A DNA stretch of 61,038 bases, counting the filler. It is 4 parts of 4 records of this genome, joined end to end, with 100 filler letters (N's around TTAATTAATTAA, not from the genome) between each part and the next. Parts side by side here need not be neighbours in the genome. Positions count along the whole stretch, not along the records: positions 18,082 to 44,714 come from SRR31156797_13021; 3 more parts are not named here. One strand, written 5' to 3'. Every line of letters starts with the position of its first letter. Position 1 is the stretch's first letter. The position numbers and the translations under genes were made by a program. Under the pieces are notes generated by a model. The model was not told the origin of the DNA and did no database searches. It worked only from the letters and a program-made list of their open reading frames with translations. This document shows positions 13,952 to 36,415 of the stretch, piece by piece.

Positions 13952-14686
13952 TTATTTGCCAGAAGTATGCTTCTTTATTATTCTGTCAATTGTACCGTCT
14001 TGCTTCATCTCAGCTAAAACTTTGTTAAATTTAGGTATTAATGAAGCTCTTTTTTCAAGTAGTTTTATTCCAATAATCGTGTCACTCAACTGCATACTGC
14101 GAGTGAATAGTTTAGGATCAAGTCCTAATTCTGAAATTGTACGTTCAAATGATATGGAATCCATAAAAATAGCATCAGCTCTTTTCAAAACCAATGTTTT
14201 TACTAAACTCTCTTCATTACTTACCTCTACTCTTTTTACAACTTCAATATCAAATATATTTTCAAAAACAGGATAATAATATCCTCTGATTATATTTACA
14301 GTTTTACCTTTTAAATCAAATGGTTCATCTACCTCAATTGCATTTTCAGCTAAAAAATAGATGTACTCTTTTACTGACATAATATCGTCAGAAAATATAT
14401 AACCCTTTTCATTAGGAGAGTTCCATAAAGGTGAGTCAATGAGTAAATCGATTTCTCCTCTTCTAAACATTGCCAAAGCTCTTTTGTTTGGAACACGAAC
14501 TACAGTTACCGTATCATTTGTTCTTCGAGTAACTTCATGTATTATGTCATAATTTATTCCTGAATATTCACCATTATGTTCCATAAAAAATGGTTTCCAA
14601 ATATCTGACGCAAATATAAAATTTTCTGCAAAACTAGTTAATGAGGTGAATATTAGGAAGATTAAAATATATAAATATTTAGTCAT
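13952..14686 (-). CDS. Family 3 (amino-acid type) substrate-binding protein, orphan
   Basis: WKPF, GINYDI, LKGKTV..IRGYYY, FNKVLAEMKQDGTIDRI. Confidence 0.85.
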   Translation of the reverse strand: MTKYLYILIFLIFTSLTSFAENFIFASDIWKPFFMEHNGEYSGINYDIIHEVTRRTNDTVTVVRVPNKRALAMFRRGEIDLLIDSPLWNSPNEKGYIFSDDIMSVKEYIYFLAENAIEVDEPFDLKGKTVNIIRGYYYPVFENIFDIEVVKRVEVSNEESLVKTLVLKRADAIFMDSISFERTISELGLDPKLFTRSMQLSDTIIGIKLLEKRASLIPKFNKVLAEMKQDGTIDRIIKKHTSGK

Positions 14687-14982
14687 GTATTTTCACATCC
14701 ATTTCCTTCAGATTTTATCTAATAATTTAAATATTCTCAGAATCAAATTTTCTGATTAATTTATAATTCATTCTATTATATATTTATCAATAATATTTTT
14801 CGTTTTTTATCAGTATATTCCTTCTTTTTTTATCTTTTTTATCTTGTAGCAAATAATGAGTTTCAACACATATCTCTTGATTGTATTTTCCTAAGATAAC
14901 ATCAAAATAATAAAAAAAGAGCCTTGTAGCTGATAGCTATCTGACTCTAATTCTTGTTTATTTTAAAATTTCTGTTTTAAGT

Positions 14983-15480
14983 TTAACTTTTAGTACTTAC
15001 GTAGATATTTGAATCTACAAAAGATTTTTTGAAATTTTGTATCAAAGATAATTTTCTCTTTAATTCAAAGGAAATATTTATTTGCTCGTTTAATAATTTC
15101 TTAAACTCCCAATATTCATTAAGTAAAATATTCATTTGAGTAGCTGCTTTGATATCATTATCATAAGAACAACTCTCTAATTTTTTTAGTACATTATTAA
15201 ATTTCACCTGAAGTTCAATCATATAATTATGATTTTTATCAATACTTTCTAAAACAATATAATACAATTTTATTAAATTAACATAGTTTTTCTTTCTAAA
15301 TATTAAAAGAAAATTTGGTAAGTTATTCATCACTTCTAACTTTTTTTCTATTCTCATGACCATTTTATCCAGTTGCTTATTCCTATCAACAAAATACTCA
15401 TATTGTACATAACAAGCTTTGATTTTTTCAGAATAAACCCCTAACTCCTCATAATTAACCTCTTTAATAACTCTCTGCAT
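14983..15480 (-). CDS. Hypothetical protein (helical/coiled-coil)
   Basis: 165-aa ORF with RBS AAAGGA. No recognisable motif. Confidence 0.55.
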   Translation of the reverse strand: MQRVIKEVNYEELGVYSEKIKACYVQYEYFVDRNKQLDKMVMRIEKKLEVMNNLPNFLLIFRKKNYVNLIKLYYIVLESIDKNHNYMIELQVKFNNVLKKLESCSYDNDIKAATQMNILLNEYWEFKKLLNEQINISFELKRKLSLIQNFKKSFVDSNIYVSTKS

Positions 15481-15508
15481 TTATATTCCTTTCAAAACTT
15501 GCTCACTC

Positions 15509-16288
15509 TTATTTTATATAGATTGATTCCTTAATTTTTCCATCTGTAATATATTTTGAGATAAACAAAGGAAGCATTTTGATATTTTTTTCGGTTATTT
15601 CAATTTTTTTATTCACACTATCATCAAATATCAGGGTTTTCCCTTTCTCAATACTATTTATAAAATCATGATATTGCTTGATTGATGAATTTATTATATT
15701 AATTGATTTTCCTCTAAACATTCCTTTTTTATAATTTTTTTCAATGAATAAAGAGGATTTCAACTCATAAAAAAGTTTAGAGTTATCTGAAAATCCTCTT
15801 TCCTTATAATCAATAACATGAGCTACTATCTCCTCTAAAATACTATAATTCAAATTATCCCTATTTGAACTATTAATATATATTTTAGGACGAATACTAC
15901 TATAATCAATCGAATAATTTTCTATTGATGTCGAATTAGTTTCATCTATGTCAAAAAATAAATCATTAGTTTCATTACCACACACATACATAAATAATGA
16001 ATTTAATGTATCAAATATTCTCTGCAAATCTTTTGAATTAAGTTTTGACTTATGGTCAGTACTTTTAATCTCATCAACAGTAAATAATTCCATTATAATA
16101 CTTTCTACAACTCTTTTATTAAAAGGCCTCGTTTTATTTACAGAAACTATAATTGTACCATCTTTAACCTCATAATATTTTGAAAGATTGCTGTCATATA
16201 GCAAATTAAAGTCAAAAATCAAGCCTCGTTTTAACATTTCCTTTGTAAGATATTCCTTTAATTCAATAATATTTAGTATTTGATCCAT
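15509..16288 (-). CDS. Hypothetical protein
   Basis: 259-aa ORF with RBS AAGGAG and a consensus-like upstream promoter. Confidence 0.6.
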   Translation of the reverse strand: MDQILNIIELKEYLTKEMLKRGLIFDFNLLYDSNLSKYYEVKDGTIIVSVNKTRPFNKRVVESIIMELFTVDEIKSTDHKSKLNSKDLQRIFDTLNSLFMYVCGNETNDLFFDIDETNSTSIENYSIDYSSIRPKIYINSSNRDNLNYSILEEIVAHVIDYKERGFSDNSKLFYELKSSLFIEKNYKKGMFRGKSINIINSSIKQYHDFINSIEKGKTLIFDDSVNKKIEITEKNIKMLPLFISKYITDGKIKESIYIK

Positions 16289-16388
16289 AAAATCTAACTC
16301 TCCTTAAAATCCCGTATTAGTTTATTTGACTCAATAATAACAAAACCCCTGTGTTTAGATATTGAATCAAAATGTTTTTTATGAACAT

Positions 16389-22849: not shown

Positions 22850-23264
22850 CAATCATTCCAAAAAATCCAGTTCTAAAGGTTTTCGACCTGTTGCAACCAT
22901 TCTTCCACAGGTCTTGGGTTAATTTCTTAGACTTCAAAACACACTCAGCCGCCTTCATCAAGGTATTTGATTTCAGGTGGGCAGGATGGTGAAGAGACAA
23001 CAAGGTAAAGCCTCTTCATGGTTCATGAATTAAAATGAGACTGATTCTCTAATCAAGTAACATTCATTAAATTAAACATACGAAACTGAATGTCAACAAA
23101 AAACCAATAAACCCAGTGGAAAAACACCTTCCGCTGCAAAAAAACGGACACCGTCTCTTGGCCCATTTCTTCTTGCGTTACAAGCGGCAATGGTTATTGT
23201 GATGTTTAATCCTGAAAAGCCGAATACACCATAATTGATAAAGTGTAAAGCAATAAATACCATC

Positions 23265-25439
23265 ATGCCAAATAAACATCATGCTTTTTTTGCCACCTGC
23301 CCTAAGGGCATCGAGGATCTCCTTTATGAGGAGATGGTTTCCCTGGACATTTCACATGTAAAACGGACCCGTTCAGGCGTTTTTTTCAAAGGAAACCTTC
23401 AATCCGCATATAGAGTCTGTCTCTGGTCCCGTCTTGCCAACCGCGTGCTTCTTCCCCTGGCCCATTTTGAGGCCAAAACACCTGATGATCTCTATATCCG
23501 GATTCATGAACAGATACAATGGCATGATCACATGAACCCGGGGGGGAAAATCGCCGTGGATTTTACGGCGAACCACGCCAACACCTTTCATTCCCACTAT
23601 GCAGCACTTCGCGTTAAAGACGCCATCGCCGACCAGTTTCGCGCAAAATTCGGATACCGCCCATCCGTTGACACGGAAAACCCCGACATCCGCATCAATG
23701 TTTACATGAAAAATGAGCTGGCTCAGGTTTCTCTGGATTTGAGCGGCAACAGTCTTCACAAACGCGGTTATCGGTTGGACGGCGGTACGGCCCCCCTGAA
23801 AGAAAATCTGGCCGCTGCCATATTGATCCGAGCAAAGTGGCCTCAACTGGCTGAAAATGGCGCCCCTCTCGTTGACCCCCTGTGCGGATCGGGAACCCTT
23901 CTGATTGAAGGCGCACTCATGGCCCTGGACAGGGCGCCGGGGCTCTTGCGGCCCACCTTCGGCTTCCTGAATTGGAAACGGCACGACCGGGCCGTATGGC
24001 AAGGTTTGCGGAGGGAAGCGGAAGCGCGTGCGGAAAAGGGGATTCAAAGATGGTTTCAACCATTTTTCGGTTTCGACAAAGACCCTGGCATCATTGCTCA
24101 AGCCCGGTCCAATGCGGTCCGTGCAGGTATTGAGGGTATCGTGTCATTCCAAGTGCAGGATATCAAAGCCCTTACAGCCCCTGAAACAAAGGTTCCGGGA
24201 TTGCTGATCGCCAACCCTCCCTACGGGACACGCATGGGCAAGAAGATGAATCTTGAAAACCTCTATAAGTCACTGGGAGATCGACTGAAACAGCACTATC
24301 AAGGCTGGTCGGCCGGCGTATTTACCGCTTCTCCCCATCTGGCCAAGGAAATGGGCATCCGTGCCAGAAAACAATACCATCTTTTTAACGGTCCCATTCC
24401 CTGCAAACTTCTCAATTTTGACATTCAGGAAGAATGGGTCATGCACGAAAGGGGCCCCGGCCGCCCTCTGTCGCAAACCAAAAAACCGCCTGCTCCGGAC
24501 CCGGGCTCGGAGATGTTTCAAAATCGGCTGAAAAAAAATCTGCGGATTATTGGAAAATGGGCACGAAAGGAGGGTATCACCTGTTACAGGCTCTATGATT
24601 CGGACATGCCCGAATATGCCGTGGCTGTTGATATTTATGAAGACCGACTCCATGTTCAAGAATACCGGGCGCCGGGTACCGTTTCTCCTGAAAAAGCAAA
24701 AGGGAGGTTGAAACAGATTCTCTCCGTTCTTCCCCGGGCCTTGAACGTTCCGCCCGATAAAATTATTCTTAAAATGAGAGAGAAGAAAAAGGGAGATGCT
24801 CAATATGAGCGGTTTGATACCCAAGGTCATTTTTTTGAGGCCAGAGAAAACGGCCTCAAGTTTCTGGTGAATCTAACCGACTACTTGGATACCGGTCTCT
24901 TTCTGGACCAAAGACTTCTACGCCAGCGGGTGCAAAAGGAAGCCTCGGGTAAACGGGTATTAAATCTGTTCTGTTACACGGCGACCGCTTCGGTTTACGC
25001 GGCAAAGGGTGGTGCTGCCGCCACCAAAAGTGTCGACATGAGCAAAACCTATCTTTCTTGGGCAAGAAAGAACCTGGTCCTAAACAATTGCAACAGCCCC
25101 AATCACCAACTGGTCCAGGCCGACTGTCTGGAATGGATTGCCGCCTGCAAAGACCGCTATGACCTGATTTACCTGGATTCCCCCACTTTTTCCAATTCCA
25201 AGCGGATGAAAACTTCTTTTGATATCCAACGGGATCATGTGCAATTGCTGACCCGGACCTTAGGTCTCCTGGCTCGTGATGGGATCCTGATCTTTTCCTG
25301 TAATTATCGAAAATTCAAACTGAACCAAAAGGGACTATCGCAATGGATTATTAAAGATATCACCCGGCCCACCATTCCAAGGGATTTCCAGAGGAACCCA
25401 CACATCCATAAAGCTTTTGAGATTAGGAAAAGCATCTAA
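23265..25439 (+). CDS. rlmKL: Bifunctional 23S rRNA m2G2445/m7G2069 methyltransferase
   Basis: CLWSRLANRVL, THUMP, SLHKRGYR, DPLCGSGT, NPPYG; second domain YLDTGLFLDQR, LNLFCYT, PTFSNSKRM. Start set at ATG 23265. Confidence 0.95.
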   Translation: MPNKHHAFFATCPKGIEDLLYEEMVSLDISHVKRTRSGVFFKGNLQSAYRVCLWSRLANRVLLPLAHFEAKTPDDLYIRIHEQIQWHDHMNPGGKIAVDFTANHANTFHSHYAALRVKDAIADQFRAKFGYRPSVDTENPDIRINVYMKNELAQVSLDLSGNSLHKRGYRLDGGTAPLKENLAAAILIRAKWPQLAENGAPLVDPLCGSGTLLIEGALMALDRAPGLLRPTFGFLNWKRHDRAVWQGLRREAEARAEKGIQRWFQPFFGFDKDPGIIAQARSNAVRAGIEGIVSFQVQDIKALTAPETKVPGLLIANPPYGTRMGKKMNLENLYKSLGDRLKQHYQGWSAGVFTASPHLAKEMGIRARKQYHLFNGPIPCKLLNFDIQEEWVMHERGPGRPLSQTKKPPAPDPGSEMFQNRLKKNLRIIGKWARKEGITCYRLYDSDMPEYAVAVDIYEDRLHVQEYRAPGTVSPEKAKGRLKQILSVLPRALNVPPDKIILKMREKKKGDAQYERFDTQGHFFEARENGLKFLVNLTDYLDTGLFLDQRLLRQRVQKEASGKRVLNLFCYTATASVYAAKGGAAATKSVDMSKTYLSWARKNLVLNNCNSPNHQLVQADCLEWIAACKDRYDLIYLDSPTFSNSKRMKTSFDIQRDHVQLLTRTLGLLARDGILIFSCNYRKFKLNQKGLSQWIIKDITRPTIPRDFQRNPHIHKAFEIRKSI

Positions 25440-25605
25440 AATTCAAAAAAAGGTTCCTGTAAGACTGCGAAAAAATAGAATTGTCGCCTTTCCCATATTA
25501 TGCTACAAATGGCAGCGCATCTAAGACTTGGGCTTGTTGGAAAAAATGGGGGTTCCATACGCCCATCATTTACCATTTTCAAAAATCATCCGGACGAGAA
25601 AACAT

Positions 25606-26448
25606 ATGACTGACCATGAAACGCTCCTTCGGGATGCTCAAGAAGGCCTCAACGAAATCGTCAAACCCTATCAGGTGGAAATCAATCGGCGGCAGCGCAT
25701 GGCCAATTTCATCAAAACCTGCATGCGCGGCACGGCCCGGAACGACTTTCTTCAACTGGATGAGCTGTTAAAAACCAAAATGGCCCGTGACGTTCAGGAA
25801 GAAGCGGGCATTGAGGAAATCGGCCCGATCTTCCAAGGTCTGCGTGAATACGCCAACGAACAGGTGGAGCGCTACCGGATGGAGTTCATTGAAGATCTCA
25901 CAACCCTGGCCCGGGATGCCGACCTGGAAATAACCATCGACTTTCCCCGCTTCCACTCATTGAAGGGAATCGAGGGAGAAATCAATTTTTCCAATCGCAC
26001 CACCACCATCAACAAGAAACTGCTCAAATCCATTGACCCCAGACGCATCGTGACAGCCCTGCTCCGCGTCAAAAAGCAGCTCTACGGTCGCCCTTACGAC
26101 CCCAGAACCTTCATTGACGGTTTATATGAAATCTACCGTAACGTTCTCAAACAGGAAAGGCTGGCGCCGGGCGCCAAGGTTCCGGCCCAGCGGCTTTACC
26201 TGGCCTATGTGATTTCCCTGCAAAGCAAATCTTTTTTTCAGGACATGGACAAAGGCAAATTCCGCGGTTACAGCGGCGATCAGTTCAGCGTGGACCTGTG
26301 GCGCTATTTTCAGGCGGGCACCGAAGGCACATCCGGCGGCCATGTCCTTAAAATGACGCCGGGAAGGATCAGCGCCCTGTGGCTCATTGACAGCGATGGC
26401 GAAAAACGCCGCATCACCGGCATATCATTCGAGGAGAAAGAAGACTGA
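25606..26448 (+). CDS. Hypothetical protein, first gene of the DUF2791/helicase operon
   Basis: 280 aa from ATG 25606. Its TGA overlaps the ATG of the next gene. Confidence 0.8.
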   Translation: MTDHETLLRDAQEGLNEIVKPYQVEINRRQRMANFIKTCMRGTARNDFLQLDELLKTKMARDVQEEAGIEEIGPIFQGLREYANEQVERYRMEFIEDLTTLARDADLEITIDFPRFHSLKGIEGEINFSNRTTTINKKLLKSIDPRRIVTALLRVKKQLYGRPYDPRTFIDGLYEIYRNVLKQERLAPGAKVPAQRLYLAYVISLQSKSFFQDMDKGKFRGYSGDQFSVDLWRYFQAGTEGTSGGHVLKMTPGRISALWLIDSDGEKRRITGISFEEKED

Positions 26449-27749
26449 TGTTTCAACAAGCGATGGATCAGTTAAAACCATTCGAGGCGAGGGCCATTAT
26501 CGAGGAACTGAGAAAGGGGAGCGTTCCCGTGGAATACGTACCCTTTTTCACGGTGGGACGGGAAAACTGGCTCACCTTGATCGAGGACGACCTGGACAAC
26601 TACATCGCCGAGGGCGGCGCAAAGGTCCGTTTTCTGAGCGGCGATTACGGGGACGGGAAAACCCATTTCATGTCCGTAATCCGCCACTTGGCCCTTCAAA
26701 AGGGCTTTGCCGTATCCTTTGTGGTCCTAACCCGGGAAGTGCCCATTCATAAATTCGAGGCGGTTTACCAGGCCGTCGTAAAACAGCTTCGCGGCCGATT
26801 CGAGGGGATCGGCATCCAAAACCTGCTGGAGGATTTTGTAACTGACCTGGCGAAGGATCTGGTACTTGAAGACGGGTCACCATCTTCAGAAAAGTTGGCG
26901 ACCCTCTCCAACGAGATTCGCTCCCTTCCCGGCATGGACATCAATTTCGCCAATGGCGTGATCGCCCTGTTGAACAACCGTCTGCAGCCCCTCGGGGAAG
27001 GAGAGGCCCGGGAAGATCGGGACCATGCACGCGAGATTCTCCATCTCTGGTTTGAGGGCGGAAAGGTCGCGAAAAAAGAGATCAAGCCCTTTCATATCTT
27101 TGAGGTGGTCAACAAGGGCAACAGTAAAAATTTCCTCAACGCCCTGATCGCTTTTCTGCGCTTTGCAAAATACCGGGGTCTGATCCTTCTCATGGATGAA
27201 CTGGAAACCGTGGTAAGCCAGGGCAAGTCCATCCGCGGCGCGGCCTACGAAAACGTTAGATTACTCATTGACAATACGGAACAGGCAGGCTTTCTCCACA
27301 TATTTTTTTCCATCATCCCCGATATCCTGGAATCGGAAAAAGGGTTCAAGTCCTACGACGCCCTTTGGAGCCGGGTCAGGTCCATCGGTGAAAACAAGCG
27401 CCTCAACTATCGCGGGGTTCTCATCGACCTTCACAGGACCCCCTTGAAAACTAAGGAGCTGATAGCTCTCGGCAAAACCCTCCGAACCATTCACGGCGTC
27501 TCTTACCGGTGGAATGCGGAAGAACGCATCCCCGATAATCTCCTTTCAGATATCTGCAAAAACCAGAAAAAGATGGGGGTATTAAGCGAAGTGCGGCTTT
27601 TCGTAAAACAGGTCATCCGCATCCTGGACATGGGGGAACAGGGGGAAGACGAAATCGATGAACTGGATCTCACGGCCCAGATGGTTCAAAGCCAGGAAGA
27701 AATGGAAAAGGAAAAAATACAGCACCTTGAACCCAAATGGGATTCGTAA
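26448..27749 (+). CDS. DUF2791 / BrxD-like P-loop ATPase (copy 1)
   Basis: IIEELRKGSVP, TVGRE, Walker A GDYGDGKTH, ALQKGFAVSFV, Walker B GLILLMDELE, SYDALWSR. Confidence 0.85.
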   Translation: MFQQAMDQLKPFEARAIIEELRKGSVPVEYVPFFTVGRENWLTLIEDDLDNYIAEGGAKVRFLSGDYGDGKTHFMSVIRHLALQKGFAVSFVVLTREVPIHKFEAVYQAVVKQLRGRFEGIGIQNLLEDFVTDLAKDLVLEDGSPSSEKLATLSNEIRSLPGMDINFANGVIALLNNRLQPLGEGEAREDRDHAREILHLWFEGGKVAKKEIKPFHIFEVVNKGNSKNFLNALIAFLRFAKYRGLILLMDELETVVSQGKSIRGAAYENVRLLIDNTEQAGFLHIFFSIIPDILESEKGFKSYDALWSRVRSIGENKRLNYRGVLIDLHRTPLKTKELIALGKTLRTIHGVSYRWNAEERIPDNLLSDICKNQKKMGVLSEVRLFVKQVIRILDMGEQGEDEIDELDLTAQMVQSQEEMEKEKIQHLEPKWDS

Positions 27750-28991
27750 GTGGACATTCAGTCTTTAAAAAACACCCTCCAACAGGAATGCAATTTCACC
27801 CTCAGGCGTGCCGTTGAACGTCTGAGGGAAGGGATATTTGATCCGGCTGCAATCCGGTTGCTCACAGCCCAAGAGGATAAACTGGTTCGCTCCTTTGACC
27901 GGGGGCTTTCTTTTCCCGAAAACAATTTTTCTCCCCATCTCTGCATCCGCGGGGATTACGGCCGGGGAAAAAGCCATTCTCTCGCCTACCTTCAGGAAAA
28001 AGCTTTGAAAGACGGGTTCGTCACCAGCATGATCAATCTCGATCCCCGGGAAGTCCCGTTTCACGATTTCGGGCGGGTGTACCGGGCGCTTTTGGCCCGA
28101 ATCCGTTTTCCGGACCATGAGGGAGATTTTCATTCAAAATGGAAATCCTGGACCAGGGATATCTCAAAACAAGCCAAAGGCAACGGACATTTTGATCCGG
28201 CAATCCTTCCCGATGAAATGCCCCACTTTTTCAAGAGCATGCTGACGGCTGCGGCCAACAAAACCGTAAAGCTTTCAGACAAAAAGAAAGCCCTAAAAAA
28301 ACATCGGAAATACCAGCCCCGAGAGTTTCCATGGCTTATTAAACGGGCTCTGGCGGGAACCATTGTTCCGGTATACAGTCTTAGAAATGTTTGTAAATAC
28401 CGAAATGTGGAATTTTACGGAGAAGCCCCTTTGAAATGCATGTACCCTCGGGAATACCTCACGCAGGTATTCTGTATGGCAACGCTCTTTAAACGGATGG
28501 GATACAAGGGGTGGGTGGTTCTTTTTGACGAGGGTGAATCCATTGCTCAGACGCGGATTACCTGTAGAAGCAGAAGTTATCAATTGCTTCACGGAATTTT
28601 CAGTGACAACTCGGCCGTCACGGGTCTGTATCCGATTTTTGCTTTTACCAACGATTTTTACTTTCGGGTCAAAGAGGAAGACTACGAACGGATTCGGATC
28701 ACCCAAAAAGGTGAATTGCCCTGTTTTGACATGAACTACGCCCGTGCATGGGAAAATCTCGCAACCCATGAACTCCATGATCTGTCCGGGAAAGAATGGG
28801 ACCAATTGACCCAAAAGCTCCTTTTGCTTCACATGCACGCTTATGCATGGACGTCCGAAAACGGACCCATTCAAAAGGAAATGGAAGCCGTTCTGGCACA
28901 AACGGTCAACAGGGAAACCCGACTCAGGATGCAATCTCTGGTCAACCAACTGGATATGGTTCACCAGGAACAGGTGCTGCACTTGTCATAG
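27750..28991 (+). CDS. DUF2791 / BrxD-like P-loop ATPase (copy 2, divergent)
   Basis: RRAVERLREG, Walker A GDYGRGKSH, ALKDGFVTS, MGYKGWVVLFDEGE, RSRSY. GTG directly follows the previous TAA. Confidence 0.8.
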   Translation: MDIQSLKNTLQQECNFTLRRAVERLREGIFDPAAIRLLTAQEDKLVRSFDRGLSFPENNFSPHLCIRGDYGRGKSHSLAYLQEKALKDGFVTSMINLDPREVPFHDFGRVYRALLARIRFPDHEGDFHSKWKSWTRDISKQAKGNGHFDPAILPDEMPHFFKSMLTAAANKTVKLSDKKKALKKHRKYQPREFPWLIKRALAGTIVPVYSLRNVCKYRNVEFYGEAPLKCMYPREYLTQVFCMATLFKRMGYKGWVVLFDEGESIAQTRITCRSRSYQLLHGIFSDNSAVTGLYPIFAFTNDFYFRVKEEDYERIRITQKGELPCFDMNYARAWENLATHELHDLSGKEWDQLTQKLLLLHMHAYAWTSENGPIQKEMEAVLAQTVNRETRLRMQSLVNQLDMVHQEQVLHLS

Positions 28992-28993
28992 TT

Positions 28994-31900
28994 TTGGATT
29001 CCCCTCTTCTTAAACTCCCCAATACCTTTCGCGCCTTTTACGGAGCCTTTCCGTCTCTTTTTCCCTTTCAGCTTCAGACCATTGAACCGATCCTTCAGGG
29101 AAGGGACCTGATCTTACGATCCGGAACCGGAACCGGCAAAACCGAGGCGGTTCTGGCGCCCTGCCTTGAACGGGTCTTTATGTCCAAAGGCGTGGACCGC
29201 CTGGTTTATGTGGTTCCCACCCGAGCCCTGGCCTTTGATTTGAAACGCCGACTCGCCCCCATCATCACCCCGCGCCTTGGGCTGGGATTGGGGGTCCGTA
29301 CCGGCGACATTAAACGAAAAGGCGGCCGAACCCCTCACATCATGATTACCACGCCCGAATCCCTGGACGTACTTCTGGGAAGCCGGAATCCCGATCTCAG
29401 GGAATTTGTTTCACGGGCCAATATGGCCGTCATTGACGAAGTCCATCCCCTGGTACACCAGTACCGAGGCCGCCAGCTGGCCCTGGTGCTCAAGCGGCTT
29501 GAACGTCGAACGGGCCGGCTTTTGCAGAAAATCGCACTCTCCGCCACCATTGCCGACATGGACATCATAGCCCGGTTTTTCGATTTTTCATCCACCACGG
29601 TTCACCTTTCCGAAAATGTGTGCAAAGAGATTGTGCCCCACCTGGTTCATCTGAAAAATGAGGATGAAGAACTCACCGCCCTTTTTGACGATCTCTACCG
29701 ATTTTTCCAATACCGAAAAATCCTGATCTTTGCCAACAGCCGCAGCGCATGCGACCGATTGTTTGCCCTGCTGGGGAACAAAGGGTGTTTCAGCGGGGCC
29801 TGCGGCCTTCATTATTCAAATCTCAAGCCGAAAGAACGGCGGGCCGTGGAACGGAATTTTCGCCGGAATCCCCATGCCCTGTGCGTGGCCACCAGCACCC
29901 TTGAGCTGGGGATCGACGTGGGCGACGTGGACGCGGTGGTGCTGTATGAACCCCCGGATTCGGTTTCCGCCTTTCTTCAGCGCATCGGCCGCGCCAACCG
30001 ACGCGTTGAAAAAACATTTTTCTGGGGCATTTGCCGGGGGGTAAAGGCGGGTGAACAGTTGACCCGTTTCCTGGGCCTTCTCGACCTGGCGGAAAAGGGA
30101 GAGGTGGAAAAGCCTCTTCCGCGAAAATTGCACAGCGTTCTGGGCCAGCAGACGGTCAGTTGCCTTTATGAAAAACAGCGTATTTCACCCGGTGCCATGA
30201 AAGATCTGTTCCCTGAAGAAAGCCACGCACTGGATAACATTTTCAAAACCATGGAAAAAACGGGCTGGTTGTCCAGGGGATCCGTCAACGGTATGTTCCA
30301 AGGTGGATGGCAATACCATAATTCCCTTTTTGAATACGGCATATGGAGCAACTTCCCACCGGCTGAAGAAGACTATTCCCTTGAGTTGTCCAAGAAAGTC
30401 ATCGCCGATATCCCCCGGGCGGTCGTGGACCAGTTGGAACCGGGGGACCGGGTCAATCTGGCCGGTAAAAGGCTGTGTATCGCAGAAATCATCCATGCCC
30501 GGGGCGCCGGGCGGGTTTTGGCCGTCCCTTCAGATCGAACGGACAGCAAGGAAATATTCTGGTTGGGCCCCGCCAACCAGGTTTCATACGAAGTGGCCCA
30601 ATCCGTTCGAGAGGTACTCAAGAGTTCTAGCCCTTCGGAAAAAGGGCTTTTTTCACGAACCCGTCTATTGCTTGAACAAGAGCGGAAAAAAATGCGGGAT
30701 GCCGTCATCCTCAAAAACGGCATTGAGGTGGTATTGAACCCCAACGGCTTTTACCGCTACCTGACCTACATGGGATCCGTGGGGAACCTCATCCTGCGCT
30801 GGACCATCAGATACCACCTGCTCGTATCCGGGGAAGAAGATGTGTTTGTGGCTTCCGACGCCGTCGGCGTGGATTGCTCACACCTGATTGATTTCGAAAA
30901 GCTTTCCCTCCCCCTTCAAAAAGAGGATCTGATCTCATGGACAAGACGGAATTTCAAAGTGCTTAAAGCGTCATTTCCTCTAAACCGCTTCTGCAGCATC
31001 CTGCCGGAAACGCTTCATATGGCGGAAATGGCGGATTTTCTTTTTGATGAACGCGTATTGAACGCCTTTTTGCATTATCACGAAGCTTCTTCCACCATTC
31101 GCTCGGGAAGCTTCGATTTTTTTGAGCGGGAACACCATGGGGACAAGGGAGATACCCCTGCGCCCATTGAAATACCGGCAACCGGTCAACCCCTTCTTGA
31201 CCTTGCAAAAGCATGTGGGAAACCCGTGCCTGAAGTTTCCCTCGATTTCCGAGCCCACTCGAACCGTCCGCTCACCGGCGGCATTCTGGCGGACTATTTC
31301 AGGCATCTTCAGTGCGAGCGTTTCCTGCGCCTTCATTTTGTGCCGGCTCATCTTCCACCGGCCTCACAAGCGCCACTTGATGCGGTGACGGATGAACGCA
31401 TTAAAGCGGGTCGTCAATTTGAAGCAACCGTCATGATCCATTTACGAAATAATGGCGCGACCCTGGTTTCCATAACCGAAAGAGATGCCACTGGAAATTT
31501 CAGATCCATGGAACTTCGGCATGGGGAAACCATTGAGGGGTTGAAAAAATTGATGGAAACGCCGGTTGGGGAAAGCAGCGGTCCCCGTTATCTTTCTCAG
31601 GGGCTGCTCCGCGAAAACGGCCTGCTTTCGGATGTGGACGGCATCGGCATTCCGGACCTGATTCGCGTCTCCCGGGAAAAGGAAATCCATGTTTTAACGG
31701 TGGGAGAATTCAAAAGCAGCCCATCTCCCCGATTTCACCACAAATGGCAAGTGGCCTTCTACGCCTTTCTACTCAACAAGATGATGGGGGAACAAAAGAT
31801 TAATGGCACCATCTCCAACCGGGGGTTTCTGCTATTGCCCGCGCAAAAAGATGCGGGGAAAATAGTCGAATACGCATTTGATTTAAATCCGTATCTGTCG

Positions 31901-34687
31901 GCTTTTCCGGCATTGATTCAAAATCTGGATGCGGTTATCTCCAAGAATGCCAAAAGAGCGGAATTCCAACTCAAGAGTCATTGCGTTTATTGCCGATGGT
32001 TCAACTGCTGCCATCAAGAAGCCTTGAACCGGGAAGAGATTCAGTTTTTACCGAACCTGACACCCGGACAGCTGGAGAGACTGAGAGCCCTGAACATCAA
32101 AAACATAAAGCAGGCGATTCAATGGCTGGAGGCCCCGAAAACCGACCCGGCCTCCATACCGCCTCACACGGACCAACAACTGAAAGCCAAAATCGACGCC
32201 GTCTCAAAACACCACATTCTGCTGAAAAACAAATCTACGCGTCTTTTTCCAACCAACATCTCGGTATCCACCATTCTCTACGCAATCCCCGGACCGCATA
32301 GCCGGACCCTGGGGCTGCGCGCAGTAGACGACAAAGGTAATGAGGGAACAGTCCGCACCTGGGAGATGCAAACGGACGGCAACAACAGGGAATCGGCATG
32401 GCATGATTTCGTAAATGTTCTTTTTGCCATCTGGAACCGAGCCATTCAAAAGGGCAAGGGACCGCACGTATTTTCCTTCGGCGGCAAAACACCGTCCCTA
32501 CTTCTCAAATGGGCAGGGGAAATGGGAAGATCGGCGGAATATGAATGGATCGCGGACATGGTTCAAAACCACTGGACCGATCTTCGCCGGGTTTTCAGGT
32601 CCCATTTCACACTCCCCATCCCCGGGGAGCTCACCCTCTATTCCCTGCACCATATCCTGGGCCTGGGCCCCGCTATCAAAAGGCCCTCAAGTCTGTTTCA
32701 CGGGGACAGGCATGAGATTGGACTGAAAGAAGCGCTGATGCTCTGCGGCAACCTGAAAAACTGGCTTTTGGGCCGCCTTGTGAGCCATCGACGGCAAGAA
32801 GGGTGGAAAACGGGGAAGGAAAATGAAGATCCATCCCGATCATATATCCAATTTGTGGAAGAACAGCAACGCTTGAAGCAGGAAGACATCTTGAAGTTGC
32901 AAACATATTCCCTGAAGGAGCGGGTGGAACGTTTCAGGGCCATGGGGCCGATCCGCTTTACGGGAAAAGAATTGGATCATGAAGGAAAATTCCGGTACAA
33001 CTTTTCCATAAGCCACAACCACGGCGCAAGCAAATTCCGGGAAGGGGATTTTTTAAAACTGGCGCATCAAGGGATACCTGATCTTCAAAACGGGTTTTCC
33101 GTTATTCTGAACCGGTACGCCCCAACCGGGAAAACCCTCTCCATCGGCTCCCGGCAGGGACACCTGGCCTTAAACCGACGTATTTCATATTCCCTGGAGG
33201 AAGACGCGGAGGATTGGACCGCCCCCAAACTGAATCACGCGGTTAAAGCCGTTCTGGGCCGGGAAGCACATCCATTCTCACGCTTATTGCGGGGAAACGG
33301 CGCTCGCACACAACATCAAAGCGCCCTAACCTGGATAGGAAAATGGCTCGCACAAAACAAATCCATCGTCGGACTCAATACGGCCCAAAGACGGGCCATG
33401 GAACTCCCTTTTTCCCATGGGCCGGGTCTCATTGACGGTCCTCCCGGAACCGGGAAAACCCATCTTCTGGGCTGGATGCTGATGGCGCTCATCCTCCACG
33501 CCCATGAATCGGGAAAACCCTTGCGCATTGCGCTCAGCGCCCTGACCCACCAGGCCATCGACAACGCACTTGAAAAGGTGGCGCAATTATTGAAGCGGTT
33601 CAACCTCCGCGGCTTTCCCGCACCGTTGATCAAGTGGGGCGATCCCGGTGATTCTGAAAAGGACAATGATGATCTCGGTGTTGAAACATCCAATGATCCG
33701 GAACATATTCTGAGGCGGCCATATCTGATTCTCGGCGCCACAGGATACGGGCTCTACCGCCTTTTTGACAGCCGCAACGGCCGTTTCCCGCCGTACTTTG
33801 ACTGGATGGCCCTGGATGAAGCCTCACAGATGCTGGTTCCCCAGGCGGCCCTGACCCTGGCCTACGGAAAGGGAAATTATCTTTTTCTGGGGGATATTCA
33901 ACAGTTGCCTCCCATTGTGCTGGGCCATGATGAAAGGGAAAACGAAACAGACCTATCACCGAACGGAAAACCGGTGGACGTTCGAAAATCGGTCCTTGAG
34001 CATCTCTTTCAGCATTACGGCGCCGAAAATCGCATCCGCCTGAATGTCACCTACCGGATGAACCGAGAACTCTGCCGGTTTCCGAGCCGCACCTGGTACG
34101 ACGGCGACCTTCACCCCGCCCCTGAAAACGCAAAATCGAGACTCGTGTTGAAAGGGACAATTTCCGACAACCCGATAGACCGGCTCATCGACCCGGATCG
34201 ACCCGCAACCCTCGCAATCATGGACCATCACCGGCATCATCAGGAATGCGAACCGGAAGCCGACCTCATTGCCCGCATCGCCTCCCGAATGATCATCCAT
34301 TTCGCCGTTCATCCGCGGCAGATCGGTTTGATCTCCCCCCATCGCGCTCAAAACAACCTCATCGCAGCCCATCTTTCCAGTCTGCTTGAGGGATCGGGCC
34401 ATGAACTTCCCCTCATTGATACGGTAGAGCGGGTTCAAGGCGCGGAAAAAGACGTCATTATTTTCGGGTTCACCACATCGGATCGGGACCATATCACGTC
34501 CGGGTTCTTAAACAATCCCAATCGATTTAATGTGGTCATGACCAGGGCGAGGAAAAAGCTCATCGTGATCGGCAGCAAGGTTTTTTTCTCCACCATTCCA
34601 AACCGGGAAAAAGAACTCGAAAATAACGCCTGCTTCAAGGAATTTTATGAGCACTGCAAGAAAGAGGGAAATCTCTTTTTTCTTTGA
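28994..34687 (+). CDS. Fusion of Lhr-like SF2 helicase, Cas4/RecB-like PD-(D/E)xK nuclease with Fe-S cysteines, and Upf1/Dna2-like SF1 helicase
   Basis: SF2: GTGTGKT, PTRAL, TTPESL, DEVH, SAT, TSTLELGIDVG, QRIGRA. Nuclease: C...GIPDL...GEFKS...QVAFY...CVYCRWFNCC. SF1: GPPGTGKT, DEASQ, GDIQQLPP, YRM, TVERVQGAEKD, RFNVVMTRAR. Start set at TTG 28994, 2 nt after the upstream stop. Confidence 0.88.
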   Translation: MDSPLLKLPNTFRAFYGAFPSLFPFQLQTIEPILQGRDLILRSGTGTGKTEAVLAPCLERVFMSKGVDRLVYVVPTRALAFDLKRRLAPIITPRLGLGLGVRTGDIKRKGGRTPHIMITTPESLDVLLGSRNPDLREFVSRANMAVIDEVHPLVHQYRGRQLALVLKRLERRTGRLLQKIALSATIADMDIIARFFDFSSTTVHLSENVCKEIVPHLVHLKNEDEELTALFDDLYRFFQYRKILIFANSRSACDRLFALLGNKGCFSGACGLHYSNLKPKERRAVERNFRRNPHALCVATSTLELGIDVGDVDAVVLYEPPDSVSAFLQRIGRANRRVEKTFFWGICRGVKAGEQLTRFLGLLDLAEKGEVEKPLPRKLHSVLGQQTVSCLYEKQRISPGAMKDLFPEESHALDNIFKTMEKTGWLSRGSVNGMFQGGWQYHNSLFEYGIWSNFPPAEEDYSLELSKKVIADIPRAVVDQLEPGDRVNLAGKRLCIAEIIHARGAGRVLAVPSDRTDSKEIFWLGPANQVSYEVAQSVREVLKSSSPSEKGLFSRTRLLLEQERKKMRDAVILKNGIEVVLNPNGFYRYLTYMGSVGNLILRWTIRYHLLVSGEEDVFVASDAVGVDCSHLIDFEKLSLPLQKEDLISWTRRNFKVLKASFPLNRFCSILPETLHMAEMADFLFDERVLNAFLHYHEASSTIRSGSFDFFEREHHGDKGDTPAPIEIPATGQPLLDLAKACGKPVPEVSLDFRAHSNRPLTGGILADYFRHLQCERFLRLHFVPAHLPPASQAPLDAVTDERIKAGRQFEATVMIHLRNNGATLVSITERDATGNFRSMELRHGETIEGLKKLMETPVGESSGPRYLSQGLLRENGLLSDVDGIGIPDLIRVSREKEIHVLTVGEFKSSPSPRFHHKWQVAFYAFLLNKMMGEQKINGTISNRGFLLLPAQKDAGKIVEYAFDLNPYLSAFPALIQNLDAVISKNAKRAEFQLKSHCVYCRWFNCCHQEALNREEIQFLPNLTPGQLERLRALNIKNIKQAIQWLEAPKTDPASIPPHTDQQLKAKIDAVSKHHILLKNKSTRLFPTNISVSTILYAIPGPHSRTLGLRAVDDKGNEGTVRTWEMQTDGNNRESAWHDFVNVLFAIWNRAIQKGKGPHVFSFGGKTPSLLLKWAGEMGRSAEYEWIADMVQNHWTDLRRVFRSHFTLPIPGELTLYSLHHILGLGPAIKRPSSLFHGDRHEIGLKEALMLCGNLKNWLLGRLVSHRRQEGWKTGKENEDPSRSYIQFVEEQQRLKQEDILKLQTYSLKERVERFRAMGPIRFTGKELDHEGKFRYNFSISHNHGASKFREGDFLKLAHQGIPDLQNGFSVILNRYAPTGKTLSIGSRQGHLALNRRISYSLEEDAEDWTAPKLNHAVKAVLGREAHPFSRLLRGNGARTQHQSALTWIGKWLAQNKSIVGLNTAQRRAMELPFSHGPGLIDGPPGTGKTHLLGWMLMALILHAHESGKPLRIALSALTHQAIDNALEKVAQLLKRFNLRGFPAPLIKWGDPGDSEKDNDDLGVETSNDPEHILRRPYLILGATGYGLYRLFDSRNGRFPPYFDWMALDEASQMLVPQAALTLAYGKGNYLFLGDIQQLPPIVLGHDERENETDLSPNGKPVDVRKSVLEHLFQHYGAENRIRLNVTYRMNRELCRFPSRTWYDGDLHPAPENAKSRLVLKGTISDNPIDRLIDPDRPATLAIMDHHRHHQECEPEADLIARIASRMIIHFAVHPRQIGLISPHRAQNNLIAAHLSSLLEGSGHELPLIDTVERVQGAEKDVIIFGFTTSDRDHITSGFLNNPNRFNVVMTRARKKLIVIGSKVFFSTIPNREKELENNACFKEFYEHCKKEGNLFFL

Positions 34688-34822
34688 GGCTTTTCGCTAA
34701 TTTTTTAAAACCTCATCCGACCGCCCAATTATGCGGGCTGAAGTCACCATTTCCTCCCCGTCTCAATAGTGGTCTGCATTGATCAGTGGAAAACCGGAAG
34801 TTGCCTTTTTTCCAGCTTATAA

Positions 34823-35362
34823 TCAAATTTTTCTGCAAACAGCCACCGTATGAATGCCGTGGGGTTCTGTGGTCGTCTGGACGCGCCATCTGCCCGATGC
34901 TTCAATCAACCGCAGAAAATTCTCTTTTTTCCTGTATAGCATAGGCCAGCAGAGGGCCCACCGGAGAAAAGACCATTCGAAATTGGGATGGATGTGGCAG
35001 GTAACAAAATGACCTTCCATTGGCAACAGACTGTAAATCCGGGACATGAGCGCGACGGCCTTTTCATCGGGGCGGTAATCAAGAAATCCTGCCATTTCAA
35101 TAATCTGAGGCTTAAATCCGTTGACACCGACCCCAGAGCCCAGGTTTTTCACAACAACGGCACGGCCCGCTTTATGGTGGAGTTCCTCCAGCACCTGGGG
35201 CAAGATCGCATGAGACAAGGCCACATGCCTCCGCCTCAAAGAATCACACATGTCTAAACCCAGAGTAATCTCATCCAGCTCCCGCCGGTAATTCGGCACC
35301 TTCTCAAAGAGCTCAAGATCGTGGGTGTACACAAGAAGGGGAAAGCCGTACCCGAAATGCAA
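34823..35362 (-). pseudogene. Remnant of a class I SAM-dependent methyltransferase
   Basis: Motif I-like NLGSGVG abuts IIEMAGFLDY with the intervening region apparently missing. WPMLYR C-terminal motif. No RBS; the 5' end abuts a PIN fragment. Confidence 0.5.
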
Positions 35363-35541
35363 TTTCTGAAATTGCCAGAAAAGCCGGCAGATTGCGGGGC
35401 CGGTACACCTTCCTTAAAACCATGGATGCCATCCAAATTGCAGCCAGCATGGAAGTGAATGCGGACGCCTTTTTCACCAATGACGTACAACTGACAAAGG
35501 TCACGGAAATTCCAATGTTGGTCCTGAAGGATTTTCTTTGA
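35362..35541 (+). pseudogene. C-terminal fragment of a PIN/VapC-type toxin
   Basis: ISEIARKAGRLRGRYTFLKTMDAIQIAASMEVNADAFFTNDVQLTKVTEIPMLVLKDFL*. No start codon between the in-frame stop at 35266 and this fragment. Not in the ORF track. Confidence 0.7.
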
Positions 35542-35646
35542 CCGGGAATCCTTCCGCATTCGTAAGCACTGTCACATCTAATCCGCATCTAGATCTCCCC
35601 GCTAAACCGTCCTCTCCAAGAAGTTTCCGCTTGTTCAAGCACCTCA

Positions 35647-35989
35647 TTAAGGGGCCGATGTGGCCATAACCGCCAACTGGGAGCGATCCAGAGCCTCCTT
35701 TAGATTCGTGGTGATATGAATTGGCGCCTCGCTTTCCTCGGCAAGCTTTTCAAGCAGTTCCCGTTTCCGCCCCATGGCAATCACATCATATTTTCGGGCC
35801 AGAATTTTGCTCATGGCCCTGCCGATCTTGCCTAAGCGCCCACCACCGCAATCGTTTTGGGATTGAGATCAAACCTTTCAATCATCATCTTGACCCCGTT
35901 AAGACCCGATGCTACCGAATAGGCATCTCCGTGGGTGATGGGGATGGAAATGCCCTTTTCCTCCTTCGCTGAAAAGCGGCTTTGCCCAT
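35647..35989 (-). pseudogene. Fragmented COG5322-like (acyl-ACP reductase/shikimate-DH-like) oxidoreductase
   Basis: GGAGG-ATG MGKAAF, then a frame jump to IPITHGDAYSVA...TIAVVGA. A frameshift (GCTTAGGC) leads to GKIGRAMSKILA...AVMATSAP*. Confidence 0.6.
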
Positions 35990-36386
35990 AGCTACCTCCG
36001 GATCAAGTTCGGAATTAAAAATTTCCCGCCAAACGGGCATTGCCCCTCGGCTTATTGGAGATAGACGCGGGAAATGGGAATTCTTTAAAAGAATCTCAAA
36101 TTTTTGAAAATAGAAATCTAAACATCTGATTTCAGATTGCATATCTCCGGATCATCCGTTTATCCCCCTAAAATGTTCAGATATTCAAATTCGTTTTGCT
36201 TCCGGGAAATCGCCTTTCAAGAGAATATTTCAAGATTGTTTGAATAATATGGTCCCGTCCACGTCTAATTCAGATAGGCGCAGCAACCCAATACAGACAA
36301 AGAAAACCCTTGCTCCCGGTCAGCGTGGTGGGTTATGGATTCTGAAACACAGTGCTCAATTTCGATTCATAGGATATAATTGCTTT

Positions 36387-36415
36387 TGAACCCTGCATCG
36401 TTTTTTTACCTCTAA
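36387..36415 (+). promoter_or_regulatory. Putative ECF-dependent autoregulatory promoter
   Basis: TGAACC-N17-CTCTAA immediately before the sigma gene. The same AACC-N17-CTCTAA occurs at 38205-38231. Confidence 0.45.

Follow-up and report, generated by a model that had tools for sequence, protein, structure and literature searches.

A conserved four-gene cassette of paired BrxD-type ATPases and a helicase-nuclease-helicase, possibly directed against mobile DNA

The 61,038-nucleotide stretch of DNA analysed here (the window, to which all coordinates without a locus handle refer) carries, directly downstream of the rRNA methyltransferase gene rlmKL, a cassette of four tightly packed open reading frames (ORFs) on the + strand, g1 to g4. 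They encode a protein of an unnamed family, two diverged BrxD-type ATPases and a giant helicase-nuclease-helicase. We conclude that the cassette is real and conserved, and that among conflict systems of the ATPase-helicase class it is a variant not described before. Our best explanation, to which we assign a probability of about one half, is that it constitutes a self-contained, undescribed four-gene system built on the ATPase-helicase dyad of Shango (SngB-SngC) and of BrxD-BrxHI, and that it probably acts against mobile DNA. Its low prevalence, the polymorphism of its site, which is shared with toxin-antitoxin genes, and a short form found on a plasmid beside AbiE point indirectly to an accessory, conflict-type role. 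For defence as such the odds appear to be about even, and DNA repair is the main rival.

Gene content of the cassette

The original prediction had placed four coupled genes of one strand after rlmKL, coding for an unknown protein, two DUF2791 (PF10923) ATPases and a giant helicase-nuclease-helicase. ORF calls and gene junctions in the window agreed with this layout, and the gene content was confirmed by Pfam, PADLOC and NCBIfam. The products have 280 amino acids (aa) for g1 (25606..26448), 433 aa for g2 (26448..27749), 413 aa for g3 (27750..28991) and 1897 aa for g4 (28994..34687). The stop codon of g1 and the start codon of g2 share the sequence TGATG, the GTG start of g3 abuts the TAA of g2, and the TTG start of g4 at 28994 lies 2 nucleotides past the TAG of g3, a gap that is identical in a related locus (L004). 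No ORF besides these four was present in the interior of the operon.

Both g2 and g3 are ATPases of the BrxD/SngB type, whose family (PF10923, BrxC_BrxD) is ORC/Cdc6-like and belongs to the AAA+ proteins. Against this Pfam family (gathering cutoff 22.2 bits), g2 matched at 1.5e-58 (199.2 bits) and the more diverged g3 at 1.2e-19 (71 bits). In PADLOC, BrxD was ahead of SngB for g2 (1.5e-45, and 1.9e-35 for SngB PDLC03959 over residues 7-402) as well as for g3 (1.6e-21 and 2.9e-6), and both proteins remained far under the 350-bit cutoff of the NCBIfam BrxD equivalog NF033438 (153.8 and 75.1 bits, respectively). A search of PDB sequences with the g2 profile returned no useful match. The Walker A motif (G-x-Y-G-x-G-K-[TS]-H; G65..K71 in g2), the Walker B D-E pair (D250-E251 in g2) and an arginine (R383 in g2 numbering) are conserved without exception in an alignment of 19 g2 and g3 sequences. 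Since these residues have been kept at a mutual identity of only ~20%, g2 and g3 are probably both active ATPases. The two paralogues differ in charge: the insert that follows the P-loop region has a net charge of -1 to -5 in g2 (10/10 sequences) and of +3 to +10 in close g3 homologues (8/8), the basic insert of g3 carrying the motif KKHxxYxPREF. An acidic C-terminal tail is a further feature of g2, with a net charge of -6 to -10 over the last 45 aa in 10/10 sequences. It ends in QPKWD(S), of which P429, W431 and D432 are invariant in 16/16 sequences, and this motif (within 27600-27749) looks like a docking peptide.

The fourth gene combines several enzymatic modules, and Pfam alone assigned DEAD/Helicase_C to residues 24-336, Cas4/PDDEXK_1 to 884-1007 and AAA_11/AAA_12 to 1461-1862 of its product. 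Residues 19-694 (29048..31075) form an Lhr/BrxHI/SngC-like helicase of superfamily 2 (SF2, DExH type), as indicated by PADLOC, PDB and motif evidence. The PADLOC profile of BrxHI matched this module over nearly its full length (2.5e-83), and SngC (PDLC03960, positions 22-706 of 720) matched residues 19-682 at 5.7e-65, which is the first third of g4 only. The closest solved relatives, over residues 14-260 and beyond, were 5v9x_A (1.1e-30) and 7lhl_A (9.9e-30), which we take to be mycobacterial Lhr helicase entries. Scores were well below the cutoff for NCBIfam TIGR04121 (192.5 bits, cutoff 850 bits) and far under it for PRK13767. The SF2 motifs (G46/G48/K49, D148-E149-H151, S183-A184-T185 and Q329-R330-G332-R333) are invariant in 12/12 homologues.

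The SF2 module is followed by a PD-(D/E)XK nuclease of the Cas4/AddB/Dna2 type with four cysteines (residues 774-1010, 31313..32023), which was recognized by Pfam (Cas_Cas4 2.4e-5, 24.9 bits with a cutoff of 22.7; PDDEXK_1 9e-5), by fold and by motifs. Its residues D888, [DE]905-x-K907 and Q919..Y923 are kept in 12/12 homologues, and so are the cysteines C774 and C997-x2-C1000-x5-C1006, a putative iron-sulphur (Fe-S) cluster motif of the same type. In an AlphaFold2 (AF2) model of residues 696-1458 (predicted local distance difference test score, pLDDT, 71.7), the nuclease matched the folds of MGME1, Cas4, SSO0001, Dna2, AdnAB, RecE and lambda exonuclease. The adjoining domain (residues ~1070-1265, 32201..32788) matched the DinG exonuclease domain, RNase T, RuvC and RNase H; this RNase H-like fold agrees with a match below cutoff to TIGR03491 (TM0106 RecB-like family) that spans residues 907-1210. 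As no acidic residue of this domain is invariant (D1196 in 11/12 and D1238 in 10/12 sequences; position 1119 mostly acidic, T in the window), it is probably non-catalytic. Residues 1456-1890 (33359..34663) form a Dna2/Upf1-like helicase of superfamily 1B (SF1B), which was identified by AAA_11 (5.7e-17, 62.8 bits) and AAA_12 (1.8e-33, 116.2 bits; cutoff 27), by PDB relatives and by motifs. Eukaryotic DNA2 was its best solved relative (5eax, 3.3e-23), followed by IGHMBP2, Upf1 and Sen1. Its Walker A (G1485-T1489), D1608-E-A-S-Q1612, Q1815, G1816 and R1851 are invariant in 12/12 homologues. All three active sites of g4 and both ATPase sites of g2 and g3 are thus invariant among sequences of 42-78% identity. 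A PDB sequence search with a profile of the middle part of g4 gave no useful match. The long fusion forms a family of 92 clusters, in which the source names are generic only.

No family match could be found for g1 in Pfam, PADLOC (E <= 0.01) or NCBIfam. Homologues are nevertheless numerous: 407 were found at E <= 1e-3 in a collection clustered at 90%, those listed having ~277-286 aa, and an exhaustive search of 1.84 billion representatives yielded 136 clusters, including a cloud of 265-300 aa at 22-30% identity. Wherever a source name was given it was 'hypothetical', the clusters returned by the Atlas carried solely this name, and 25 distant relatives searched against Pfam had no family above cutoff. 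In the AF2 model of g1 (pLDDT 90.2; predicted template modelling score, pTM, 0.76), residues 3-104 form a long helical hairpin and residues 109-140 a small sheet, after which come helices and a three-stranded sheet in the C-terminal part. Foldseek searches of PDB and of BFVD (viral models) with this model gave no match at E <= 1e-3. The best VIA-align score (Z 8.0) was to a Mediator helix bundle, most rows being helical-hairpin matches, and residues 165-280 aligned weakly (Z 6.0-6.5) on winged-helix domains of ORC/Cdc6 subunits and of RPC62. The modelled C-terminal part of g1 may therefore resemble a winged-helix domain, which is a weak lead and no fold assignment. One g1 homologue (G057:C11:213179-214019) lies in two overlapping frames (residues 1-142 and 138-280) and is probably a frameshifted copy.

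Conservation, variant forms and genomic setting

To examine the linkage of the four genes, 24 loci with a g1 relative in species-representative genomes were searched by tblastn with all four proteins. The order g1-g2-g3-g4 was found in 18 of them, and five others reach a contig edge before g4. In the remaining locus (L005), g1-g3 are present, g4 is missing from the following 3.4 kb and a g4 homologue occurs on another contig. This recurrence of the four-gene order, which answers the call of the original prediction for a test of conservation, shows that the cassette is more than a chance arrangement. By their labels, the carriers belong to Thermodesulfobacteriota (Desulfobacter, Desulforhabdus, Syntrophobacteraceae and others), Latescibacterota and SAR324. 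Those in culture are the Desulfobacter strains from which L012 and L015 come and the Desulfomonile strain whose plasmid is described below. Identity to the window was 54-87% for g1, 61-88% for g2, 44-74% for g3 and 42-78% for g4, that of g2 across the three phyla being 61-65%. In a g2 tree of 23 rows, Latescibacterota form one clade (support 98/97) that is sister to SAR324, and both are nested in an unresolved set of Thermodesulfobacteriota lineages. An apparent deletion of g2/g3 in L017 was rejected, the gap being a run of 100 N.

Several variant forms could be distinguished. Two loci carry g4 in two ORFs with a break after the nuclease (residues 1-1046 and 1053-1888; L013 13520-20066, L023 3156-9337), so the fusion is separable. 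In a short form (L018 and L019), g4 is represented by an Lhr-like helicase of 725-736 aa alone, and no match to g4 residues 696-1897 was found at E <= 1e-10 in the two genomes, which are incomplete bins. A short form also occurs on the 26.9-kb plasmid pDESTI.01 of Desulfomonile tiedjei (L065, NC_018026.1, 8880-15641), where the genes are annotated as hypothetical, two 'BREX system ATP-binding domain-containing protein' entries and a DEAD/DEAH box helicase. This copy sits behind a 401-aa helix-turn-helix protein, and its neighbours include ParA, AbiEi/AbiEii, RNase HI, a PD-(D/E)XK nuclease, a tyrosine recombinase and a DNA polymerase. A distant version of the core, a kind to which the plasmid copy also belongs, was seen in L027, with a g1-like gene, two BrxD-like genes and a BrxHI-like helicase, preceded by a 402-aa unknown protein. 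In L025 (275-4665) and L026 (38-5016), an SNF2 (DrmD/BrxHII-like) helicase and a protein of 379-387 aa precede the g1-like gene; both loci end at contig edges, a BrxD-like match after the g1-like gene being present in L026 only. We consider these two loci to represent a larger related system in the same bacterial family.

The cassette is rare. Its prevalence was counted in clades of relatives, in which many genomes are incomplete: a strong g1 match was present in 7 of 105 species genomes in the family to which G001, the source of the closest locus, belongs, in 7 of 209 of its class and in 9 of 168 of the phylum of the Latescibacterota carriers. Its site is also polymorphic. Of the nine genomes whose rlmKL was most similar (75-82% identity), four (G001, G099, G102 and G104) have the cassette 3' of this gene and four (G098, G103, G105 and G101) do not; in the ninth (G100), rlmKL lies at a contig end and g1 on a separate contig. 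The four 'empty' sites are occupied by a HepT remnant with a PIN pair, by a PIN gene or by comM. Toxin-antitoxin genes are also found inside the cassette itself. In G102 (L064 5455-6271), genes for a TacA antitoxin and a GNAT (TacT-like) toxin, oriented against the cassette, separate g2 from g3, the cassette being intact in other respects. In L018 (13474-14127), a copy from Syntrophobacteraceae, a nucleotidyltransferase gene (MNT/Pol-beta type) is located between g3 and the short Lhr-like helicase.

Flanking genes were surveyed at 14 loci. Pfam was run on 113 of 133 flank ORFs, leaving aside 20 upstream ORFs at L009 and L011 that match those of L006 in order and size, and the content was mostly housekeeping or metabolic and varied by lineage (among others TonB-ExbBD, MFS, endonuclease III, sulfatase, ComM, AcrB pumps, LptFG, TsaD, KsgA, FtsY and glutathione synthase). 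PADLOC at E <= 1e-15 was applied to 132 ORFs (111 from the 14 loci, after removal of two short-form helicases, and 21 from the window) and matched nine. Seven of these are generic, namely three ABC ATPases, a DEAD-box helicase and three rRNA methyltransferases, rlmKL among them. The two possibly defence-related ORFs are a partial UvrD/GajB-like match in the flank of L019 and, in L017 (the closest relative), a RecQ-like helicase directly 3' of the cassette (14480-16309, - strand; DpdF 6.7e-209, PsyrT 4e-111), at whose position the window has gene wreckage only. It should be noted that several lineages, not all of one phylum, have comM (Mg-chelatase-like) beside the cassette or at an rlmKL site that lacks it (L006 19200-20792, L061 3717-5144, L062 5243-6766 and L064 13423-13764).

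In the window, rlmKL (23235-25439, + strand) lies directly upstream of the cassette and is preceded by rpsA on the - strand. A block conserved in an alignment of the window and three relatives (25481..25509, + strand; TTGTCG-17 nucleotides-TACAAA) is a possible promoter upstream of g1, with 8 of 12 consensus positions matched. It was not reported by a consensus promoter and terminator scan, which gave site numbers no higher than those in shuffled sequences. On the 3' side, the predicted decay and PIN toxin remnant were indeed found, and no intact gene is present at 34700-36400. The remnant (35269-35541, + strand) corresponds to the last third of PF01850 and scored below cutoff (E 5.2e-4; 21 bits, cutoff 23.6), and it is 67% identical (tblastn 1.5e-32) to a PIN gene of 149 aa that occupies this site, intact, in the relative G098. 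That intact gene matched Pfam PIN at 1.5e-9 and has a 72-aa ORF upstream (L060 4205-4869). The decayed stretch also contains Rossmann-fold fragments (35647-36002, - strand), one of them at 35647-35868, and an ECF (extracytoplasmic function) sigma and anti-sigma pair is located beyond it.

Possible roles of the cassette

We infer the following assembly, loading, polarity and target. The products of g2 and g3 would form a mixed ORC/Cdc6-type AAA+ assembly, in which the basic insert of g3 may contact DNA and the acidic insert and tail of g2 may serve as a docking, regulatory or autoinhibitory element. With its coiled-coil and winged-helix-like parts, g1 might be an adaptor or sensor in the place of the TerB protein of Shango, and the g1-g2-g3 complex would load or license g4 onto its target DNA. 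Lhr-type motors move 3'-5' and Dna2-type motors 5'-3'. Because two such motors flank the nuclease, g4 could act as a single-chain, RecBCD/AddAB-like end-processing machine, its two motors advancing in a common direction, one on each strand, while the nuclease cuts in between, so that DNA would be unwound and degraded. The most likely target would be incoming or replicating mobile DNA, either phage or plasmid.

A bolder reading, which we put forward only tentatively, is that the cassette represents a new class of immune or DNA-surveillance system, in which heteromeric ORC/Cdc6-like ATPases and a g1 adaptor would be a 'helicase loader' for foreign DNA that places a single-chain bipolar helicase-nuclease, a functional RecBCD/AddAB analogue in one polypeptide. 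If this is true, the nuclease-free short forms and Shango would be minimal versions of the same loading principle. The cassette is a natural stand-alone dyad of the BrxD-BrxHI type, and since it adds an obvious nuclease effector and a second motor, the loader-helicase idea could be tested with few point mutants. Within the literature searched, g4 would be the first combination of an SF2 Lhr-type and an SF1B Dna2-type helicase in one chain, which also makes it of interest to helicase-nuclease enzymology.

A number of observations weigh against a role in defence, and several of them would suit genome maintenance, in which g1 and the AAA+ pair would bring the helicase-nuclease to breaks, R-loops or stalled forks of the host chromosome. 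The nearest solved relatives of the g4 modules, Lhr (5v9x, 7lhl) and eukaryotic DNA2, come from families of known repair enzymes, and the best NCBIfam match of g4 is a ligase-associated DNA damage response helicase, albeit well under its cutoff. The neighbours are mostly housekeeping genes, with endonuclease III or comM nearby at some loci, and thus show no enrichment of a defence island; an association with such islands, whose examination had been proposed, proved weak (2/132 flank ORFs). Conservation of g1 and g2 (54-88%) is unusually high for defence genes, and the phylum-coherent g2 tree implies few transfers. Within the clade of the window, the cassette genes (72-88%) and the adjacent rlmKL (76-79%) are similarly conserved, as vertical inheritance of the cassette with its flank would predict. 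GC content has no sharp step at the cassette either, and a recent horizontally acquired island with a compositional boundary was rejected for this reason. Copies in phage were absent from 50,697 phage records and from IMG/VR, and only one of 72,556 plasmid records matched. Since the short forms lack the nuclease, DNA degradation cannot be a universal output and would be an added output rather than the core activity. Nevertheless, we regard an accessory repair system as somewhat unlikely. The cassette is present in just 3-7% of species genomes per clade and is missing at the same site in close relatives, toxin-antitoxin genes have inserted within it and nearby, its ATPases have their closest profile matches solely among components of defence systems, and the plasmid copy lies beside AbiE.

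That plasmid copy is also the starting point for an origin as a mobile-element module for replication, maintenance or competition, in which ORC/Cdc6-like ATPases would load a helicase at the origin of the element and the genes would later have been captured by chromosomes. It lies near ParA, a tyrosine recombinase and a DNA polymerase; the PLSDB gene table of pDESTI.01, which is incomplete and so weakens this point, has no Rep initiator annotation; and BrxD-type ATPases are assigned to the ORC/Cdc6 class in the part of PMC12839542 that deals with them. We consider this origin improbable, given the single plasmid match and the lack of any on phage or viral contigs. The chromosomal copies stand amid housekeeping genes, without integrase or element genes in the 10-kb flanks at most loci, and a nuclease-bearing dual helicase would be unexpected as a replicative helicase. 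Least probable is that we are dealing with a known system in degenerate or atypical form, be it Shango or the accessory part of BREX type 2, as the PADLOC matches to BrxD/SngB and BrxHI/SngC might suggest. Neither a TerB/SngA gene nor pglX, pglZ, pglW or brxC could be detected by Pfam and PADLOC within ~10 kb of either side in the window and the 14 related loci; g2 and g3 fall far short of the BrxD equivalog; and the four-gene form is itself conserved across phyla.

Relationship to known systems

As a single protein, g4 resembles Dna2 in the succession of a four-cysteine PD-(D/E)XK nuclease and an SF1B helicase. In having motors of presumably opposite polarity it is also similar to AddAB, AdnAB and RecBCD. 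Two motors of opposite polarity are known from RecBCD and AddAB, but those of g4 share a single chain and come from two superfamilies, SF2 (Lhr-like) and SF1B. Unlike AddAB and RecBCD, g4 has no known Chi-type recognition part and is genetically tied to a pair of AAA+ ATPases. The closest solved relative of the SF2 module is Lhr, the large helicase-related protein of mycobacteria and E. coli, which works in repair as a stand-alone helicase and differs from g4 in its C-terminal half.

At the level of the whole cassette, the original prediction had stated that no described model is matched, and this held: TerB/SngA is missing from the operon, no pglX, pglZ, pglW or brxC/pglY was found in the window ORFs at 14983-46145 or in 111-113 flank ORFs of the 14 loci, there are two ATPase genes, and a nuclease and a further helicase are fused to the first helicase. 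In the literature searched, which did not include the supplements of PMC12839542 on gene neighbourhoods, no system composed of two BrxD-type ATPases, g1 and a helicase-nuclease-helicase was found described. According to the relevant parts of the Shango reports (PMC10250203; Millman preprint, bioRxiv 10.1101/2022.05.11.491447), Shango consists of the TerB-like protein SngA, the ATPase SngB and the DEAD/DEAH helicase SngC, and is defined by its TerB protein. The likeness lies in an operon whose small first gene is followed by genes for an ATPase of the PF10923 type and a helicase that resembles Lhr. However, the first gene of the cassette belongs to an unnamed family instead of encoding a TerB protein, its ATPase occurs as two diverged paralogues, giving four genes instead of three, and its helicase is extended by a putative Fe-S nuclease, an RNase H-like domain and an SF1B helicase. 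With BREX type 2, the cassette shares tight gene linkage and the best profile matches, BrxD (1.5e-45) and BrxHI (2.5e-83), whereas it adds a second ATPase, g1 and the nuclease-SF1B extension, and its ATPases lie far under the NCBIfam BrxD equivalog cutoff. In the portion of PMC12839542 concerned with the dyad, BrxD is proposed to load or activate BrxHI, a proposal that we follow in the working suggested above; the mechanism of Shango and the role of BrxD-BrxHI in BREX type 2 are described as still unknown in the corresponding passages of PMC10250203 and PMC12839542. Thus, because it lacks the TerB protein the cassette is not Shango, and because it lacks the pgl and brxC genes it is not BREX type 2. 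It is related to both Shango and the BrxD-BrxHI dyad and is a member of neither.

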